Counted from the stretch's first letter, positions 12,356 through 53,064 are shown. The stretch is DNA of 64,000 bases from a virus (IMGVR_UViG_3300028840_006907:1-64000), one strand, 5' to 3'. The notes: a model not told the origin generated them from the letters alone. Numbers and translations are program-made.

Positions 12356-13540
12356 TTATCCTCTTACATAATCAGTTACACAGTTAATTTCATCATCACT
12401 TATCCAGGCACCGTGATATCGTTCAGGTTCAGAAGCACCAGGATAAATCATTAACATATCTCCCTTACCGGCCAGAGCTTCAGCTCCATTGCAATCAAGA
12501 ATAACTCTGGAATCATTTTTGGATGATACTTGGAATGAGATCCTTGAAGGCATATTGGATTTAATAAGACCAGTGATAACTTTAACGATAGGCTTTTGAG
12601 TTGCAAGTACCAGATGGATACCTACTGCTCTGGCTAATTGAGCCAACCGTACGATCATTTTCTCAAGTTCTTTACCTGAAGTCATCATAAGATCAGCCAT
12701 CTCATCAACCACAGTTACTATATAAGGAAGTTTTGTATCGGAATTTTTATTAAAACTTTCGATATTTCTTACTCGATAATCAGCTAAGAGTTTATATCTA
12801 CGATCCATTTCTTCAATTAAATCTGAGAACACATGCACCGCTTCTGAGGGCTCGGTAACCACAGGGCATCTCAGGTGGGATAAATTATTATATGACGCCA
12901 TTTCCACTCTCTTGGGATCGACAAGGACAAGCTGGCATTCATCTGGTGTTCGAGTAAATAATATTGAAAGAAGAATACTATTTATACATACAGATTTACC
13001 TGATCCAGTTTGACCTGCGATTAAAAGATGAGGCATAGTAGTCAAATCGATTATTTTTGGATTACCAATAGTATCGGTTCCAAGTACGATGGGAATCTTG
13101 GTATTGGAATCAGTGGTAAAGATATCACGGAAACCGATAATGGATCTTGTTTCATTCATCATTTCTATTCCAACACAAGCTGTACCTGGAATGGGTGCTT
13201 GGATTCTGATATTGGATGACATTAAAGCCATTGCGATATCTTCAGTGATCTTTTTAATCTGAGCAATCCTTACACCTTTTGATAATTTCAGTTCATATCG
13301 GGTAACCACTGGGCCATGTTTAATATCCTGGACAGCAGTATCGAATCCAAGTTCAGCGATCCTGTTTTCAAGATCATGAGAGCTTAAACTGTTGGGTATT
13401 CTATTGGATGAATACTCGTTTAAGAGTCCTAAATGAGGTTTTCTATATCTTTTGTTTTTCTTCTTTTTACATGCATCTTCCTCGGAATTAAGGAGTTGCA
13501 TTACATTTAAGAGCTTTCTGAATTTTGTTGATTTGTTCAT
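12356..13540 (-). CDS. FtsK/SpoIIIE-family DNA translocase motor (alpha/beta domains only)
   Basis: GPVVTRYEL, APIPGT..VGIE, Walker A GQTGSGKS, Walker B VVDEMADLMM; no N-terminal TM or gamma domain. Confidence 0.8.
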   Translation of the reverse strand: MNKSTKFRKLLNVMQLLNSEEDACKKKKNKRYRKPHLGLLNEYSSNRIPNSLSSHDLENRIAELGFDTAVQDIKHGPVVTRYELKLSKGVRIAQIKKITEDIAMALMSSNIRIQAPIPGTACVGIEMMNETRSIIGFRDIFTTDSNTKIPIVLGTDTIGNPKIIDLTTMPHLLIAGQTGSGKSVCINSILLSILFTRTPDECQLVLVDPKRVEMASYNNLSHLRCPVVTEPSEAVHVFSDLIEEMDRRYKLLADYRVRNIESFNKNSDTKLPYIVTVVDEMADLMMTSGKELEKMIVRLAQLARAVGIHLVLATQKPIVKVITGLIKSNMPSRISFQVSSKNDSRVILDCNGAEALAGKGDMLMIYPGASEPERYHGAWISDDEINCVTDYVRG

Positions 13541-13556
13541 AATTCCTCCACAATAT

Positions 13557-13571
13557 ATTATACGAGATCTC
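13557..13571 (-). promoter_or_regulatory. GAGATCTC palindrome fused to TATAAT box upstream of FtsK-like gene
   Basis: Minus strand reads GAGATCTCGTATAAT, then GGAGG and ATG at 13540. Confidence 0.4.
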
Positions 13572-13698
13572 TTAAAGAGATTCCAGGTTTTTCTTGGGGC
13601 AGAAGTCTATTTTCTTTTATATCAAACCTTTACAAGAGAAAAAATTAAATTAATAATCTTTTGATATTATTGCCTTTGTTTACAAAGAAAGGGTTATA

Positions 13699-14712
13699 AT
13701 GAAATATTTAATTTCTCATCAGATAAAAGTGTTGGCGAATTGTTTAGAGAACTATAAAGAGGTATGGGATATAGTTCCTATAATGATGCGGATCTCTTTT
13801 GAGAATCCCAAATTAAGTATGAAAGAGATTCAGGTTAAAAGTAAGATGGAAAATTATGGGAATCTTTTTTCAAGAATAATGGCAGATTTAAAAACTGCTC
13901 AGGAAAAGAATATTGTTTTCAAAAGACCTCATAAAGTTTTTAAGCAAGCGGATGATTTGCTTGTGTTATTTAATAAGTTGACAGGTAAAAAAGAAACCAC
14001 AAGTGAGAGTTCTGAAAATGAGTTATTAGATATTGTTAATATCCTTTCTGAAAATGTCAAACCTTTATCAAAAAGACCAAAGTGGGAAATTGAAAATCTT
14101 AAGGTCATGGATGATATCGATGCCTTAATGAAGAAGTTTCCTTTTACCATTCAAACGGTATTGCAACGCTCCATAAAAAGGAAAGAAGAAATAGAGCAGG
14201 AATTGGGAAAAGGTGTCACAGCAAAAAGAGAAATAAAAGTGTATCTCGATATGGATAGTTGTATCACCGACTGTGACAAGGCTATCAGGAAGCTAGGACC
14301 GAAAGTTGCCAAAGGTTTAGCAGATGATGCTTCCGAGGAAGAGAAGCAATACATGTATGATAAGATTGAAGAGAAGGGGGCTGAGTTCTGGTCTGAAATG
14401 GAATGGATGCCCAAAGGTGAAGAGCTTTGGAAAGTGGTAAAGAAATATGATCCTGTTTTGCTGTCCTCACCAGGATTATTTAAATGGGCTCCTGGTGGAA
14501 AGAAAAATTGGGTAGATAAAAATATTCCAGGAACAACTTTGTATCTTGATATTGACAAATATCAATGGGCTGAACCCGACTCAGTTCTCATCGATGATCG
14601 GGTTTCAAATATAGAGAGTTGGAAAGAGGCCGGTGGTGAAGCCATCCTTTATGAAAATGATCCAGAACTCGTTAAATTAAAACTAAAAGAGATCATCAGT
14701 CAACCGGGGTAA
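13699..14712 (+). CDS. protein with C-terminal HAD-like 5'(3')-deoxyribonucleotidase-type domain
   Basis: YLDMDSCI (DxD-type) and C-terminal VLIDDRVSNIESWKEAGGEAILYEND; only long plus-strand gene in the left arm. Confidence 0.45.
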   Translation: MKYLISHQIKVLANCLENYKEVWDIVPIMMRISFENPKLSMKEIQVKSKMENYGNLFSRIMADLKTAQEKNIVFKRPHKVFKQADDLLVLFNKLTGKKETTSESSENELLDIVNILSENVKPLSKRPKWEIENLKVMDDIDALMKKFPFTIQTVLQRSIKRKEEIEQELGKGVTAKREIKVYLDMDSCITDCDKAIRKLGPKVAKGLADDASEEEKQYMYDKIEEKGAEFWSEMEWMPKGEELWKVVKKYDPVLLSSPGLFKWAPGGKKNWVDKNIPGTTLYLDIDKYQWAEPDSVLIDDRVSNIESWKEAGGEAILYENDPELVKLKLKEIISQPG

Positions 14713-14935
14713 CTTTTTTATCTGCAAAACCTTCTACTTTGTAATGAACTAGAACTCGTGCAAGTTGTGTCGCGCTAACGATTTCAAATGTTAGATTTGC
14801 ATCTTTAATTTTATTCCACACTCTTTGCATTGCAGCACATTCTTCTTCATTTGGTTCTTCAGGAATAAAAAAGTATCCTTTTTGTTTTTTTCTTTTCCAC
14901 CAGAAAAATAAATCTAATAACCACATAATAACCAT
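14696..14935 (-). CDS. hypothetical protein
   Basis: 79-aa ORF, convergent overlap with 13699-14712. Confidence 0.35.
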   Translation of the reverse strand: MVIMWLLDLFFWWKRKKQKGYFFIPEEPNEEECAAMQRVWNKIKDANLTFEIVSATQLARVLVHYKVEGFADKKVTPVD

Positions 14936-14952
14936 CCTATATCAAAAAAAGA

Positions 14953-15168
14953 TCATTTAATGGTTATTATATCATTCGTGCTTTTTTGGTTCAAGAAATA
15001 AAGATTAATTTCTAACATTAAAAGTTCTGTACCATCACAGTAACCTTTCCACCATTCTTCGTATTCTTTTGTTCCTATATCATATAAGCATTCTTTAAAT
15101 GGTTCGTTTAATTTTTTGGTGGATGTGATAAGTCCTTTACGATACGGAGTAAGTGTAGATAAATCCAT
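14953..15168 (-). CDS. hypothetical protein
   Basis: 71-aa ORF. Confidence 0.4.
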   Translation of the reverse strand: MDLSTLTPYRKGLITSTKKLNEPFKECLYDIGTKEYEEWWKGYCDGTELLMLEINLYFLNQKSTNDIITIK

Positions 15169-23279: not shown

Positions 23280-23499
23280 TTATTGTACCTTCTAAAGAAA
23301 TATGTGAATTGAATCCTTTAGAGAAATATTGTGCTGGGTTAAATTTAAAAATTGCTATTCCTCCTATTGCCACAAGAAAAATAAAGAGAATGATTCTCCC
23401 GATCTTTCTTGGCAATTCTTTTCTTCGACGTTTAGCCATAAAATCTTTTTCATTTATTTTCATTATTATCCTCATTATTATCCTCATTATTATCCTCAT
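23269..23499 (-). CDS. small membrane protein with N-terminal (MRII)n repeat
   Basis: 12-nt tandem repeat encodes MRIIMRIIMRIIM; then basic stretch and TM helix; start set to first ATG. Confidence 0.35.
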   Translation of the reverse strand: MRIIMRIIMRIIMKINEKDFMAKRRRKELPRKIGRIILFIFLVAIGGIAIFKFNPAQYFSKGFNSHISLEGTINEK

Positions 23500-23508
23500 T
23501 ATTATTAA
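23461..23508. repeat. 12-bp tandem repeat, about 4 copies
   Basis: cattattatcct x3 plus one degenerate copy. Confidence 0.9.
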
Positions 23509-35238: not shown

Positions 35239-35740
35239 TATATATACCCAATTACCTTTTTTATCCAGTAATATAACATTTTAATACTATCAAATACCAA
35301 CGTCCTATATGGTGCGTCCGTATTAATCTCTATTAAATCAGTCGTCCTATATCTTTAAACTATGGTCTATATAGTAATAAACACGATCTATAAATCAAAT
35401 AACAATTTTAAGGTAATCCTCTTACTCATCAATATCCATATCTTTATAATAAAAAACCCACACATAGCACCTATAAAAATGTGGAACCCTTTAAGGCATT
35501 TCTTAAGTAACTATGTATGGGCACTGAAAGGGATTTATACAAATCCCATTATTATCTTAATATATTAACTTACTATATGTCTATACCTATAAACATATCC
35601 CCCTATATATTACTAATTAGTAATATGAATGTAATTATCCCTATCCCCTATATCTAATAACCTATAAACTATCCATTAAGTATATCTGTATCCTATCCAT
35701 ATAATAACTCTGTAAGAGAAAATTAATATGTATCAGTATG

Positions 35741-35890
35741 CCCATTACCTTGAATAGAATAATGAGTAAGTCAGTACCAGGAACTATACCATCATGAACT
35801 ATGAACTCGGAACTATGTCAGGGAAAACTTGAGTACTTACCCATTACCTTGAATAGAATAATGGGTAAGTCAATACCAGGAACTATGTCG
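35741..35890. repeat. about 48-bp direct repeat x2 (period 99 bp), each with internal inverted repeat
   Basis: cccattaccttgaatagaataatg(a/g)gtaagtca(g/a)taccaggaactat at 35741 and 35840. Confidence 0.85.
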
Positions 35891-36057
35891 GGAATTTCCA
35901 ACGAGTATTTTGAAAAAATTTATTCTCCCTGCAAAACCCGGAACCGATTTCCTAGTTCCTACAATCATATATTAATAATCTTTTGTTATCTGTATAAGTA
36001 AATTTACACAGGGTAATTGACTGATCAAAGTAAGTTAATGTCTTCCCAAACCGAGTC

Positions 36058-36141
36058 TTTGACTTGGGGAAATTGGTTGTTGACTGTAGAGAAGAATAAT
36101 TTCACTTGCTCATTTGGGTATTTGACTTGGGGAAACTGGTT
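36058..36141. repeat. 21-bp direct repeat x2 (period 63 bp)
   Basis: tttgacttggggaaa(t/c)tggtt at 36058 and 36121. Confidence 0.85.
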
Positions 36142-36511
36142 CCCGACTATCAAAAGTGGGGTTAAAAACGAGGGGGGTTACCCCTAAATTTGATATTTCC
36201 AGACTGGGAACTCAGACAGGGGCGATTCCAGACTGTTTCTGGCCAGACTGGGGGAAAGACCTAAGACGGTCTTAGTCCACTCATCCAAGACCATTGCCAT
36301 TTATCTGATCCGTAGCTCCAGACCTGGAATGACTTGGATAGAATTTTATATGTTACTGCCAGACAGAAAATGATCTTTGAGTCTCCACGTCCCAGGATTT
36401 CCTGGACACCGTGTAATCCACGGAACTCTAGGCTATCGGCTGATTTAATTTCGTTCTGAACTTCTATGGGAAGTTCATTCATGTTTATTTGATCTATACT
36501 TGTGATATGCA

Positions 36512-50908: not shown

Positions 50909-51517
50909 TTAGTTATAGCGAGTTATTCCGTCACTGGATTCAAAATCCATTGCGAGTATGGTATATAATTCCGTTTCCTGTGTATTAATTGTGTCTGGAT
51001 TGACTTGTCTGGAATATCCATCACTGCTTTCAAAATCCATTGCGAGTGAAGCAAATTCATTTGATATGGTTACAAGCGAGTTAACTGGTTGAATTTCAAC
51101 GATTTCAGTCTGGGTTTGGACTTCTTTAATACATTCATCCATTAAACTATTTAGAGTATCTAAGTCGGTAGTTTTTACGAAGGTTTCCCAGTCCTCTTTG
51201 GACATATTAAAATATTCTCGTACGACTTCGAGTTTATCTATATCTGTTATAGTTTTTACTTTGTTCCCGTTTTGCCAAATACTTTTAGCTTTATTAGTAT
51301 ATATAATCTCGCCTGTAAAGTTATGGTTGAAATTTAACCAGCGAGTCTCGTTATTTACTGACGGGTCAATGACTTCAGCGAGTTTATTACCAAAACGGTT
51401 TATACGATAACGGCCAGTACATTGAACGTTTATCCATTCACGAATTGTTTTTCTTGCGGTTTGGTTTGTGCCATTAATAACAGCACCAATTAATTTATCG
51501 TTCATTAGTATAGACAT
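50909..51517 (-). CDS. hypothetical protein with duplicated C-terminal LAMDFESSDG motif
   Basis: First gene of the leftward array next to the control hub; about 35-nt DNA direct repeat inside its 3' end. Confidence 0.5.
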   Translation of the reverse strand: MSILMNDKLIGAVINGTNQTARKTIREWINVQCTGRYRINRFGNKLAEVIDPSVNNETRWLNFNHNFTGEIIYTNKAKSIWQNGNKVKTITDIDKLEVVREYFNMSKEDWETFVKTTDLDTLNSLMDECIKEVQTQTEIVEIQPVNSLVTISNEFASLAMDFESSDGYSRQVNPDTINTQETELYTILAMDFESSDGITRYN

Positions 51518-51572
51518 AATATTTCCCCTTGTCTAATGTATATATTAACAGTCAATTATTTTTTTCTGTTGT

Positions 51573-51940
51573 CATGAATAATGAAAAAAGTTTAGTAACT
51601 TTCCGAAGTTTTAAGAAACTTTTTCTTTGACGTTTGTTTTTTGTGGCTTTCATGAGTAATGAAAAAAGTTTAGTAACTTTCCGAAGTTTTAAAAATTTTT
51701 TCTTTCATGTAAACTTTTCCTTGTCTACATGAGTAATGAAAAAAGTTTAGTAACTTTCCGAAGTTTTAAAAATTTTTTCTTTCATGTAAACTTTTCCTTG
51801 TCTACATGAGTAATGAAATTAGTTTGGTAACTTTCCGAAGTTTTAAAAATTTTTTCTTTCATGTAAACTTTTCCTTGTCTACATGAGTAATGAAATTAGT
51901 TTGGTAACTTTCCGGAAAAAATTGTAAAAACGCTATTTTC
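51573..51940. repeat. 77-bp tandem direct repeats, about 4.4 copies
   Basis: Units begin at 51573 (degenerate), 51651, 51728, 51805, 51882 (partial). Confidence 0.95.
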
Positions 51941-52312
51941 CTTTATATAGGGGAGAGCCAGAAATCGCCCGTTTGATGTGCGTGATATATACGCCCGAAA
52001 ATGTTCCCGGTTCTAACCCCCCAGTGAAATACCCTTTCCACAAAAGTGAAATACCCCAATACAACTATACCATACCCGACCATACCCCACCCCCGGGACC
52101 TGTCTTCGGGATCATCATCATGCGCTTGCTTTTCGTGCGCTCAATGCCATACCCACCCCCTTTTTGTAAAGATTTTTGGAAGTTGGAAATGGATGGAGTT
52201 AGATTGGATTTTTTGGATGGTAGAAAATTTTGGCTGGTGGGAGAGACCCCACAGTAAAGTACCCGGTTGGTTCAGGGAAGTACCAATATGGTTCAGTGGA
52301 GTGTCTTTTTTG

Positions 52313-52370
52313 TGGCGCATATCCTGTTATAGTGGCGCATATTCTATTATAATGGCGCATATTTCAGTTC
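52313..52370. repeat. three direct GTGGCGCATAT boxes at about 20-bp spacing
   Basis: gtggcgcatatcctgttata / gtggcgcatattctattata / atggcgcatatttcagttca. Confidence 0.9.
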
Positions 52371-52397
52371 AAAGCTCTCAGAACCCAGTTCAAAGAA

Positions 52398-52628
52398 CAG
52401 GGAACAGGGAACTGAGCACAGGGAACTGAGCACAGGGAACCGAGCACAGGGAACCGAGCACAGGGAACTGAGCACAGGGAACTGAGCACAGGGAACTGAG
52501 CACAGGGAACCGAGCACAGGGAACCGAGCACAGGGAACTGAGCACAGGGAACCGAGCACAGGGAACTGAGAACAGGGAACCGAGCACAGGGAACTGAGAA
52601 CAGGGAACTGAGAACAGGGAACCGAGCA
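52398..52628. repeat. 14-bp tandem repeat array, 16 copies, GC-rich
   Basis: CAGGGAAC(T/C)GAGCA with T/C and C/A variants; partial copy then units from 52405. Confidence 0.95.
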
Positions 52629-52872
52629 CCTGTATCTGTGATCTCGGAAAAGTTTCGGGAAAAAAATCGGGAACGGCTCAGGGCTGAGAAATAGGTATGA
52701 ATTTTTTTGGGGTATAATTTTTGGAGTTAAACAGTTGGGGAAATTGGAGTTATCTTATGTGAGGTGATGGGATAGTTTATGGAGGGTGAAAATTTTTTGG
52801 TATAGTTTGATGGAGAAACAGGTATAATACTTATAGGACGGAAAAATTTAAGTCTAATGGTTCGAGGATCTT

Positions 52873-53064
52873 GTGAAGAAGAACACAAAGCGTAAATTAA
52901 ATAAATTGATAGCATTTTGCAAGGATGAGGGGATGGACATAAGTGCGGATGGTGGTTTAATTTATGTCACGGTAGGAAATGGTCGGATGAATGAGGAGGT
53001 TTGGTGTGAGAAGGCTATCAGTGGTTTTTCGGAGGTTGGTGATTTTGGTTTTAACGAGGATTAA
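52873..53064 (+). CDS. hypothetical protein, first gene of rightward array
   Basis: 63-aa ORF; GGTATAAT box about 40 nt upstream. Confidence 0.45.
   Translation: MKKNTKRKLNKLIAFCKDEGMDISADGGLIYVTVGNGRMNEEVWCEKAISGFSEVGDFGFNED

Follow-up and report, generated by a model that had tools for sequence, protein, structure and literature searches.

A tandem array of AT-rich 77-bp units between the divergent gene arms of a phage-like genome: a candidate cis-acting module for origin function or early control

Tandem repeat array in the gene-free gap

The 64,000-nt stretch IMGVR_UViG_3300028840_006907:1-64000 (hereafter the window, meaning the whole of the DNA that was analyzed) is from a metagenomic, phage-like genome of ~470 kb, and the element described here is a tandem array of 77-bp units located in a 1.35-kb gap without credible genes (51518-52872). 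To the left of the gap, nearly all open reading frames (ORFs) of at least 90 amino acids (aa) run leftward (~800 to 51517, ~51 kb), and to the right all ORFs run rightward from 52873 to the window end (at least 11 kb). Three parts were distinguished within the gap: the AT-rich array (26% GC), a GC-rich repeat island (43-53% GC) and a final AT-rich part.

The array was detected by Tandem Repeats Finder (TRF) with a period of 77, 4.4 copies, 93% matches, no indels and a score of 535; this array and the adjoining 14-bp array (score 382) are the two strongest tandem repeats of the window. The following features were defined by TRF, unit identities and uniqueness scans, with an inverted-repeat search for the palindrome.

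51573-51914, no strand: the 77-bp array, 4.4 copies, GC 26%
51573-51650: unit u1, 78 nt, 63/78 identical; ~42 nt match, then the last ~35 nt diverge
51651-51727: unit u2, 77 nt, identical to u3 (77/77)
51728-51804: unit u3, 77 nt, identical to u2 (77/77)
51805-51881: unit u4, 77 nt, 74/77; AAAAAAG changed to AAATTAG and TTTAG to TTTGG
51882-51914: partial unit u5, the first 33 nt of u4 repeated, then different sequence
51658-51705: palindrome of u2, with arms at 51658-51679 and 51684-51705 that are 77% complementary around the centre TCCG

A preliminary description of this locus had counted four and a half copies of a 77-bp repeat, with near-identical units starting at 51651, 51728 and 51805 and a TTGTCT hexamer in the unit, and these points are borne out by the unit identities above. 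It had also taken both end units for degenerate copies. This is correct for the diverged u1, but the last unit is truncated rather than degenerate: it runs into a conserved block of sequence (see below) that has residual homology to the unit tail. The end previously placed at 51940 was ~26 bp too far and reached into that block.

When 20-mer and 27-mer unit probes were used to scan the 64 kb, matches were found only at the array, against 0.03 and 0.00 expected in shuffles; this is far above expectation, and the array is therefore not due to chance. The unit motifs were confined to 51.5-51.9 kb, as would be expected for a cis-acting site. Each unit contains an imperfect palindrome of ~48-59 bp. 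In u2 the dyad reaches outward to CATG...CATG ends (~59 bp); it is repeated in u3 and is weaker in u1 and u4. Folded as single-stranded DNA, u2 gave -10.2 kcal/mol (z -2.8), with z-scores of -0.8 for u4 and -0.65 for u1. The T-tracts of the unit are phased at ~9.6 bp.

Array units and copy number in related genomes

Relatives were identified through the first leftward gene, whose family marks the array in every one of them.

50909-51517, - strand: first leftward gene, encoding a 202-aa protein

A word-indexed search for homologues of this protein found one, P0002 (47% identity), and ten more, with 27-41% identity over the N-terminal ~140 residues, came from a full HMMER search using a profile of two sequences. 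The four lineages referred to below are the window and the three homologue-bearing lineages with readable upstream DNA. The relatives' contigs (L numbers) are syntenic where they are long enough, and in L006, L008 and L012 the homologue is followed at 2-5 kb downstream by a DUF932 gene (372-376 aa), matching the arrangement in the window. An AT-rich tandem unit of 68-79 bp was present directly upstream of the 202-aa homologue in all three lineages with readable upstream DNA, with one extra small gene between array and homologue in the L008 group.

L012: unit of 77-79 bp, 7.7 copies
L013: at least 2.2 copies
L008: unit of 78 bp, 1.8 copies
L010: at least 2.7 copies
L017: unit of 69 bp, 3.2 copies
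L019: 2.2 copies
L018 and L020: about 1.2 copies, one full unit and a partial one

The flanks of L018 and L020 are near-identical to those of L017, so the difference lies in whole units. Copy number thus ranges from ~1.2 to 7.7 across the relatives and varies even between near-identical genomes; the preliminary description had proposed a comparison of copy number among relatives, and the number proved not to be conserved. What is conserved instead is the unit, its size of ~70-80 bp and its position, which places the function in the module itself rather than in a count of four.

A T-run/CATGnnTAATGA core is common to the units; in the orientation of the window it reads TTTTTTCT(G/T)TT..(T/C)AT(G/A)nnTAATG(A/G), and those of the window and L017 additionally share an A-run and TTTCCGAA(A/G)GT. 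Unit sequences are ~50% alike between lineages and 92-100% alike within one genome. A long imperfect hairpin better than that of shuffled sequences was found in three of the four clades (window u2, z -2.8 as above; L017, z -3.9; L012, z -3.1); the arm sequences differ from clade to clade, and the dyad symmetry is kept. In the window, L017 and L012, the dyad arms are formed by an A6-A9 run and the matching T-run; the unit has an A6 - weak hairpin - T6 symmetry. The composite protein-binding sites suggested in the preliminary description fit this anatomy of one palindrome per unit and a shared core, from which we infer the binding itself.

The array might instead be a functionless by-product, namely a duplicate of the first leftward gene's leader or promoter region, prone to slippage and tolerated in non-coding DNA. 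Such an origin would agree with copy numbers of ~1.2-7.7 even among near-identical genomes, with the homogenization of the copies within a genome, and with the unit end CCTTGTCTA, which repeats the sequence just upstream of the gene start (51527-51535). However, independent lineages whose proteins are 27-41% identical keep a 68-79-bp unit, its site and its core (and, in three of four, the dyad), and over such divergence a duplication without function would be lost, and would not arise anew at the same site and size. This explanation is considered quite unlikely.

A single-copy conserved block beside the array

Directly after the last partial unit, all four lineages contain the sequence AAATTGTAAAAA[A/C]GCTATT-N26-GCCAGAAA, extended by TCGCCCGTTT in three of the four.

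51919-51974, + strand: conserved block, consisting of AAATTGTAAAAACGCTATT (51919-51937), 19 nt with TATATA (51944-51949), and GCCAGAAATCGCCCGTTT (51957-51974)

The spacing from TTGTAA to GCCAGAAA is exactly 29 nt in 4/4 lineages, and the sequence between them varies. In the alignment of the four lineages, 17/18 and 8/8 columns of the two parts were invariant, and the block is unique within the window. It is constant across the window, L008, L012 and L017-L019 despite flanking proteins that are only ~35-40% identical. Short iteron-like arrays follow the block in each lineage; in L008, a 13-15-bp unit resembling A(C/G)TnAAATACCC is repeated eight times where the window has GC-rich short repeats.

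The block may represent either an origin core or a promoter whose +1 region is conserved. As a promoter it could be read as TTGTAA-N16-TATATA with +1 near G51957; because the -10 of this reading is absent in L012, it is offered as a hypothesis only. A start of a small gene, in a PEIARL frame running into the ORF at 51973-52257, was rejected, because the window and L008 lack a start codon, L012 has an in-frame TAG, the substitutions are spread over mixed codon positions and the frame is not kept through the downstream repeats. The likeness of TATAGGGGAGAG to a T7-type promoter was also set aside, the motif occurring once in 64 kb and being missing in L012. The conserved 20-mer of the block had no match in viral_contigs; its three matches in genome_contigs were all attributed to chance, lying inside GC-rich coding genes that encode PEIARL.

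The ends of at least eight contigs, drawn from at least seven assemblies, lie within or beside the arrays: those of the window phage (51792 and 51874), L002, L006/L007 and L009-L013. For the window phage, an ENA contig of 469,021 bp ends at 51874 and a JGI contig of 388,651 bp (metagenome 3300017963) starts at 51792; each breaks within the array and shows no other difference from the window. The metagenome is a D. Valentine data set according to PMC7449369. The short Logan contigs L002, L006 and L007 end 8-33 nt past CATG(A/G)(G/A)TAAT, itself 66-103 nt upstream of the homologue, and these ends probably reflect the break of a k-mer assembler on entry into the array. Independent short-read assemblies of the clade break systematically at this locus.

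These ends, and a block that is single-copy, invariant and unique, would also suit a packaging or terminus signal, in which array and block together form a pac/cos site or a terminal-repeat boundary for terminase, or else a T5-like injection stop. However, assemblies of one genome break at different points, which fall in stretches identical between units, as in a de Bruijn-graph repeat break, and other assemblies read through (window, L008, L017-L019). No terminase gene is present nearby. A packaging or terminus role is therefore very unlikely.

Coding, promoter and terminator readings of the units

Each unit contains a 26-codon ORF on the + strand (MSNEKSLVTFRSFKNFFFHVNFSLST), with its ATG within CATGAGTAATG and a TGA that overlaps the ATG of the next unit as ATGA. 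The ORF and the overlaps are real, and the ORF of the L017 unit shares FR.S.NFFFH; the units could accordingly be regarded as tandem micro-genes, each encoding the 26-aa peptide and coupled by the ATGA overlaps (77 = 81 - 4). Nevertheless, no Shine-Dalgarno sequence precedes the unit ATG (CCTTGTCTAC ATG), whereas the neighboring genes have one. The ORF is 26 aa long in the window, 8 aa in L012 and 21 aa in L017, and it reads through across units in L008; the A-run and T-run inside it differ in length by 1 nt between units and between genomes; and the amino-acid similarity is no greater than that of the underlying T-rich DNA. Micro-genes are thus scarcely credible. The array is non-coding, as the preliminary description had already argued, since ORF length is not kept in the relatives and the homopolymers change by single nucleotides.

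Because the genes diverge from the gap, promoters for both arms must lie there, and the flanking genes are small ORFans of the kind typical of early regions. Each unit might then carry a promoter for an unusual host sigma factor or a phage polymerase, directed leftward into the 202-aa operon or rightward to the block, with additional copies raising early transcription. The unit core ends in a -10-like hexamer (AGTAAT, AATAAT, TATAAT or GATAAT by lineage), and homology links the unit tail (ATGTAAAC..TTTTCC) with the -35-like head of the block (TTGTAAAAACGCTATTTTCC), so that the units look like duplicated promoter pieces. However, the promoter scan found no sigma-70 -35/-10 pair in any unit on either strand, and between 51300 and 53100 it returned one site, outside the array, versus 4.2 in shuffles; this sole promoter-like site (51535..51507) overlaps the start codon of the first leftward gene. 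G occupies position 2 of the -10-like hexamer in the internal units of the window and in L006, the L012 unit has AATAAG, and the best -35-like hexamer is 19 nt away. The motif is absent from all other intergenic regions in the 64 kb, so it does not represent a general promoter class of the genome, and about one copy suffices in some genomes. The reiterated promoter of the preliminary description therefore does not hold in the sigma-70 sense, and one promoter per unit in the wider sense is an unlikely explanation.

A bidirectional terminator or insulator, in which the A-run, hairpin and T-run of each unit would block read-through between the divergent arms, is highly improbable. The A6-to-T6 symmetry of the unit would allow it, as would the L017 unit, in which GTTTTC-N9-GAAAAC is followed by T8. 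Against this, the terminator scan found 0 intrinsic terminators in the gap versus 2.0 expected, the stems are almost pure A-T with at most 1-2 G-C pairs, and divergent operons offer no read-through to stop.

Other parts of the gap and the flanking genes

The remaining parts of the gap were annotated as follows, the three entries for the leader zone being readings of the sequence.

51518-51572, - strand: leader and putative promoter zone separating the array from the first leftward gene, with the Shine-Dalgarno sequence AAGGGG
~51550-51542, - strand: extended -10-like site TGnTAATAT in the leader zone, a putative promoter
51552-51557: GTCAAT (reverse complement ATTGAC) in the leader zone, a motif common to the relatives' units
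51975-52403, no strand: GC-rich direct-repeat stretch, 43-53% GC, with short repeats packed together
52023, 52045 and 52253: AGTGAAATACCC, three copies, direct repeat in the gap
52070, 52080 and 52147: CCATACCC, three copies, direct repeat in the gap
52252/52273: 21-bp pair, direct repeat in the gap
52313-52363: TGGCGCATAT, 20 bp, 2.5 copies, direct repeat in the gap
52404-52629, no strand: 14-bp array of 16 copies, ACAGGGAAC(T/C)GAG(C/A), TRF score 382
52630-52872, + strand: right end of the gap, with TATAAT at 52713-52718 and 52823-52828, ahead of the first rightward gene (GTG at 52873)

Both TATAAT hexamers at the right end are without a -35 and so were not flagged by the promoter scan; they are putative promoter elements only. 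The GTCAAT motif, which occurs once in the window, is present in every array unit of L008 and L012. In L008 (~1095-1160) and L012 (~810-870), the homologue of the 202-aa gene is closely preceded by an inverted repeat, GTCAATGC-N27-30-GCATTGAC. The gap contains at least five further short direct-repeat families (52313-52363; 52023-52056; 52070-52160), and a motif of the AAATACCC type also forms the 13-15-bp array of eight copies at the same relative position in L008. The 14-bp array at 52404-52629 has three unit variants in semi-regular order, and its database matches were only low-complexity ones, to cyanobacterial and Ruegeria plasmids. In L017 (8231-8348; also in L018 and L019), an 18-bp array of 6.4 copies in the gap reads as GNAQVY hexapeptide repeats; the frame is open and seems to continue into the called 304-aa gene, the start of which may be called too far downstream. 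No tRNA or tmRNA was found in the 64-kb window, and no Rfam match reached the gathering score there, the matches in the gap being at chance level only (E 0.5-0.7).

Identical copies (100%) of the flanking proteins are encoded on contigs as long as 469,617 bp (NCBI, JGI, ENA, Logan). Phage-like content includes an FtsK-like translocase that is 46% identical to cluster-J-type mycobacteriophage proteins, the DUF932 gene (DUF932 is widespread in phages), GP88, a PAPS reductase, a deoxyribonucleotidase and an AAA protein in phrog_8638; the remaining genes are ORFans. BLAST of the gap and flanks against phage and plasmid collections gave no real DNA-level relative, and exact-pattern scans for the unit, as well as protein-pattern scans with the 202-aa protein, found nothing in viral_contigs and metagenome_contigs. 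Conservation of the right-flank gene was considered and rejected, the 304-aa proteins of the window and L017 being unrelated.

The 202-aa protein is predicted to have an all-beta Sm/SH3-like barrel (residues 1-92), followed by a helical part and a disordered acidic tail. It had no Pfam, PHROG or PDB sequence match to a known DNA-binding protein or initiator, and fold searches gave weak Sm/SH3/WYL-like similarity only, none of it informative. The tail (residues ~155-202; 50923-51060), predicted to be disordered, contains a duplicated acidic motif, LAMDFESSDG(Y/I), the last copy of which, (L)A(M/S)DFESSDG..RYN, is kept in the 47%-identical homologue P0002.

Elsewhere in the window, a second stretch of ~1 kb (~35240-36260) contains short ORFs only, many of them on the minority + strand, together with direct repeats 47, 31 and 22 nt long, spaced by 99, 63 and 75 bp, respectively. 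Immediately left of this stretch the GC skew reaches a very strong -0.53 (34-35 kb), whereas on the right it falls to about zero. A perfect 12-bp tandem repeat of 3.8 copies, TCATTATTATCC, is located at 23460-23505.

A proposed role in origin firing or early control

The best explanation, put forward tentatively, is that the array is a non-coding cis-acting module that would assist the adjacent core in origin function, early control or both. The anatomy and position of the array, its conservation across lineages, its copy-number polymorphism and its non-coding status are established; protein binding and an origin or enhancer role are what we infer. An AT-rich semi-palindromic module of ~70-80 bp would have been tandemly amplified via slippage or unequal recombination, in a master divergent control region with the first leftward gene on one side and the invariant core block and short iterons on the other. 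Each module would be bound by a dimeric or oligomeric DNA-binding protein, encoded by the phage or its host, or might alternatively be extruded as a hairpin. Rather than forming a row of independent promoters, the array would serve the adjacent core as an architectural or enhancer auxiliary, acting on origin firing and/or on the divergent early promoters. One module would be enough, leaving copy number free to drift between 1 and 8. This explanation is preferred because it covers the conserved size and position, the shared core and dyad, the concerted evolution of the units and the free copy number, and because it also covers the locus-specific sequence, the block with its fixed spacing, the iterons and the start of both gene arms.

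Several observations weigh against a cis-acting origin or control module. Free copy-number variation is also expected of a neutral, slippage-prone sequence. The cumulative GC skew has its minimum at the array; however, the skew turns positive (13001-15000) at a + strand gene (13699-14712, with a deoxyribonucleotidase-like C-terminus) inside the leftward arm, so it tracks the coding strand, and it was rejected as independent evidence for an origin because it follows gene orientation. No DnaA boxes (at most one mismatch) were found in 50-54 kb, and Pfam and PHROGs searches found no Rep, DnaA, primase or helicase among the ~25 flanking ORFs within ~10 kb; as these are mostly ORFans, a novel initiator may be encoded among them. 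The substitutions in u4 and u5 weaken the hairpin, with no compensating changes, and the L008 unit has no significant dyad (z -0.2). Finally, the duplex instability of the array is only at the 86th percentile among 340-bp windows, which does not support an exceptional unwinding element.

To our knowledge, very large metagenome-assembled phage genomes have almost no annotation outside genes, and GC skew is the only guide used to guess at their origins and early control regions. The conserved non-coding architecture described here (module array, fixed-spacing block and iterons) is recognizable across lineages with 27-47% identical proteins and offers a searchable landmark for the control or origin region of the clade, and the module is a defined DNA probe for finding its binding protein. 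Short-read assemblies break at the locus, and the polymorphic copy number is usable as a strain marker. A more far-reaching proposal, which is doubtful, is that the array, the bipartite block (AAATTGTAAAAAnGCTATT-N26-GCCAGAAA) and the iterons together form a master switch for the origin and early transcription. It would be a palindrome-based enhancer and origin auxiliary similar to a baculovirus homologous region (hr) or the family of repeats of Epstein-Barr virus (EBV), bound by a new class of DNA-binding protein, possibly the adjacent Sm/SH3-barrel protein. If true, this would give prokaryotic viruses their first described element of this kind, in a previously undescribed clade of very large phage-like genomes.

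Comparison with known systems

Large lytic phages (SPO1/SP82, T5, and T7 with A1-A3) have curved or UP-element DNA upstream, and tandem early promoters. The array resembles these systems in its AT-rich DNA upstream of divergent early operons of small ORFans, with T-tracts in phase, but it has no sigma-70 promoter per unit, and the known systems are not perfect tandem repeats of ~77 bp. The iteron origins of plasmids and phages (lambda ori, P1 oriR, F, R6K) consist of direct repeats of ~17-22 bp and an AT-rich segment in non-coding DNA (see the review by Rajewska et al. 2012, cited in PMC7145576). Direct repeats and an AT-rich segment in non-coding DNA are also found here, and repeats of 12-22 bp adjoin the array in the window and in relatives. 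Unlike in iteron origins, the 77-bp unit is 3-4 times the length of an iteron, the short repeats lie beside the array and not in it, and there is no adjacent rep gene and no DnaA box in 50-54 kb. The array may thus correspond to the AT-rich auxiliary part of such an origin rather than to its iterons.

The origin of the Vibrio cholerae phage satellite PLE is located in a 2.7-kb non-coding region with four repeat families (PMC7145576), and the gap is likewise a kilobase-scale, gene-free region between gene clusters with several repeat families. Iterons of the RepA_N type (pSK41, pTZ2162) are semi-palindromic direct repeats with inverted sub-repeats converging on a poly-A tract (PMC7145576). Inverted sub-repeats around a poly-A tract are also found in the units of the window, L017 and L012; however, these units are 68-79 bp, compared with ~20-30 bp for the iterons, and no RepA_N or other initiator domain was matched in the flanking ORFs; origin activity here is putative.

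Baculovirus hrs are built from 64-bp units, 3-8 in number, that each include an imperfect palindrome of 24 bp, and function as both origin and enhancer (PMC4535591), a dual role exerted through a dimeric binding protein, IE-1 (PMC4535591). They differ from the present array in belonging to eukaryotic viruses, in occupying dispersed loci and in being bound by IE-1, whereas a single locus in 64 kb and no IE-1-like protein were found here. Family membership fails because the window has no RepA_N protein and a single locus; the array may therefore be said to work like a RepA_N iteron or an hr, not to be one, and its relation to the hrs would be an analogy of mechanism rather than membership. Among the systems compared, the hrs (units of ~64-70 bp) are the closest in unit size and anatomy, since both are tandem, have a central imperfect palindrome and vary in copy number.
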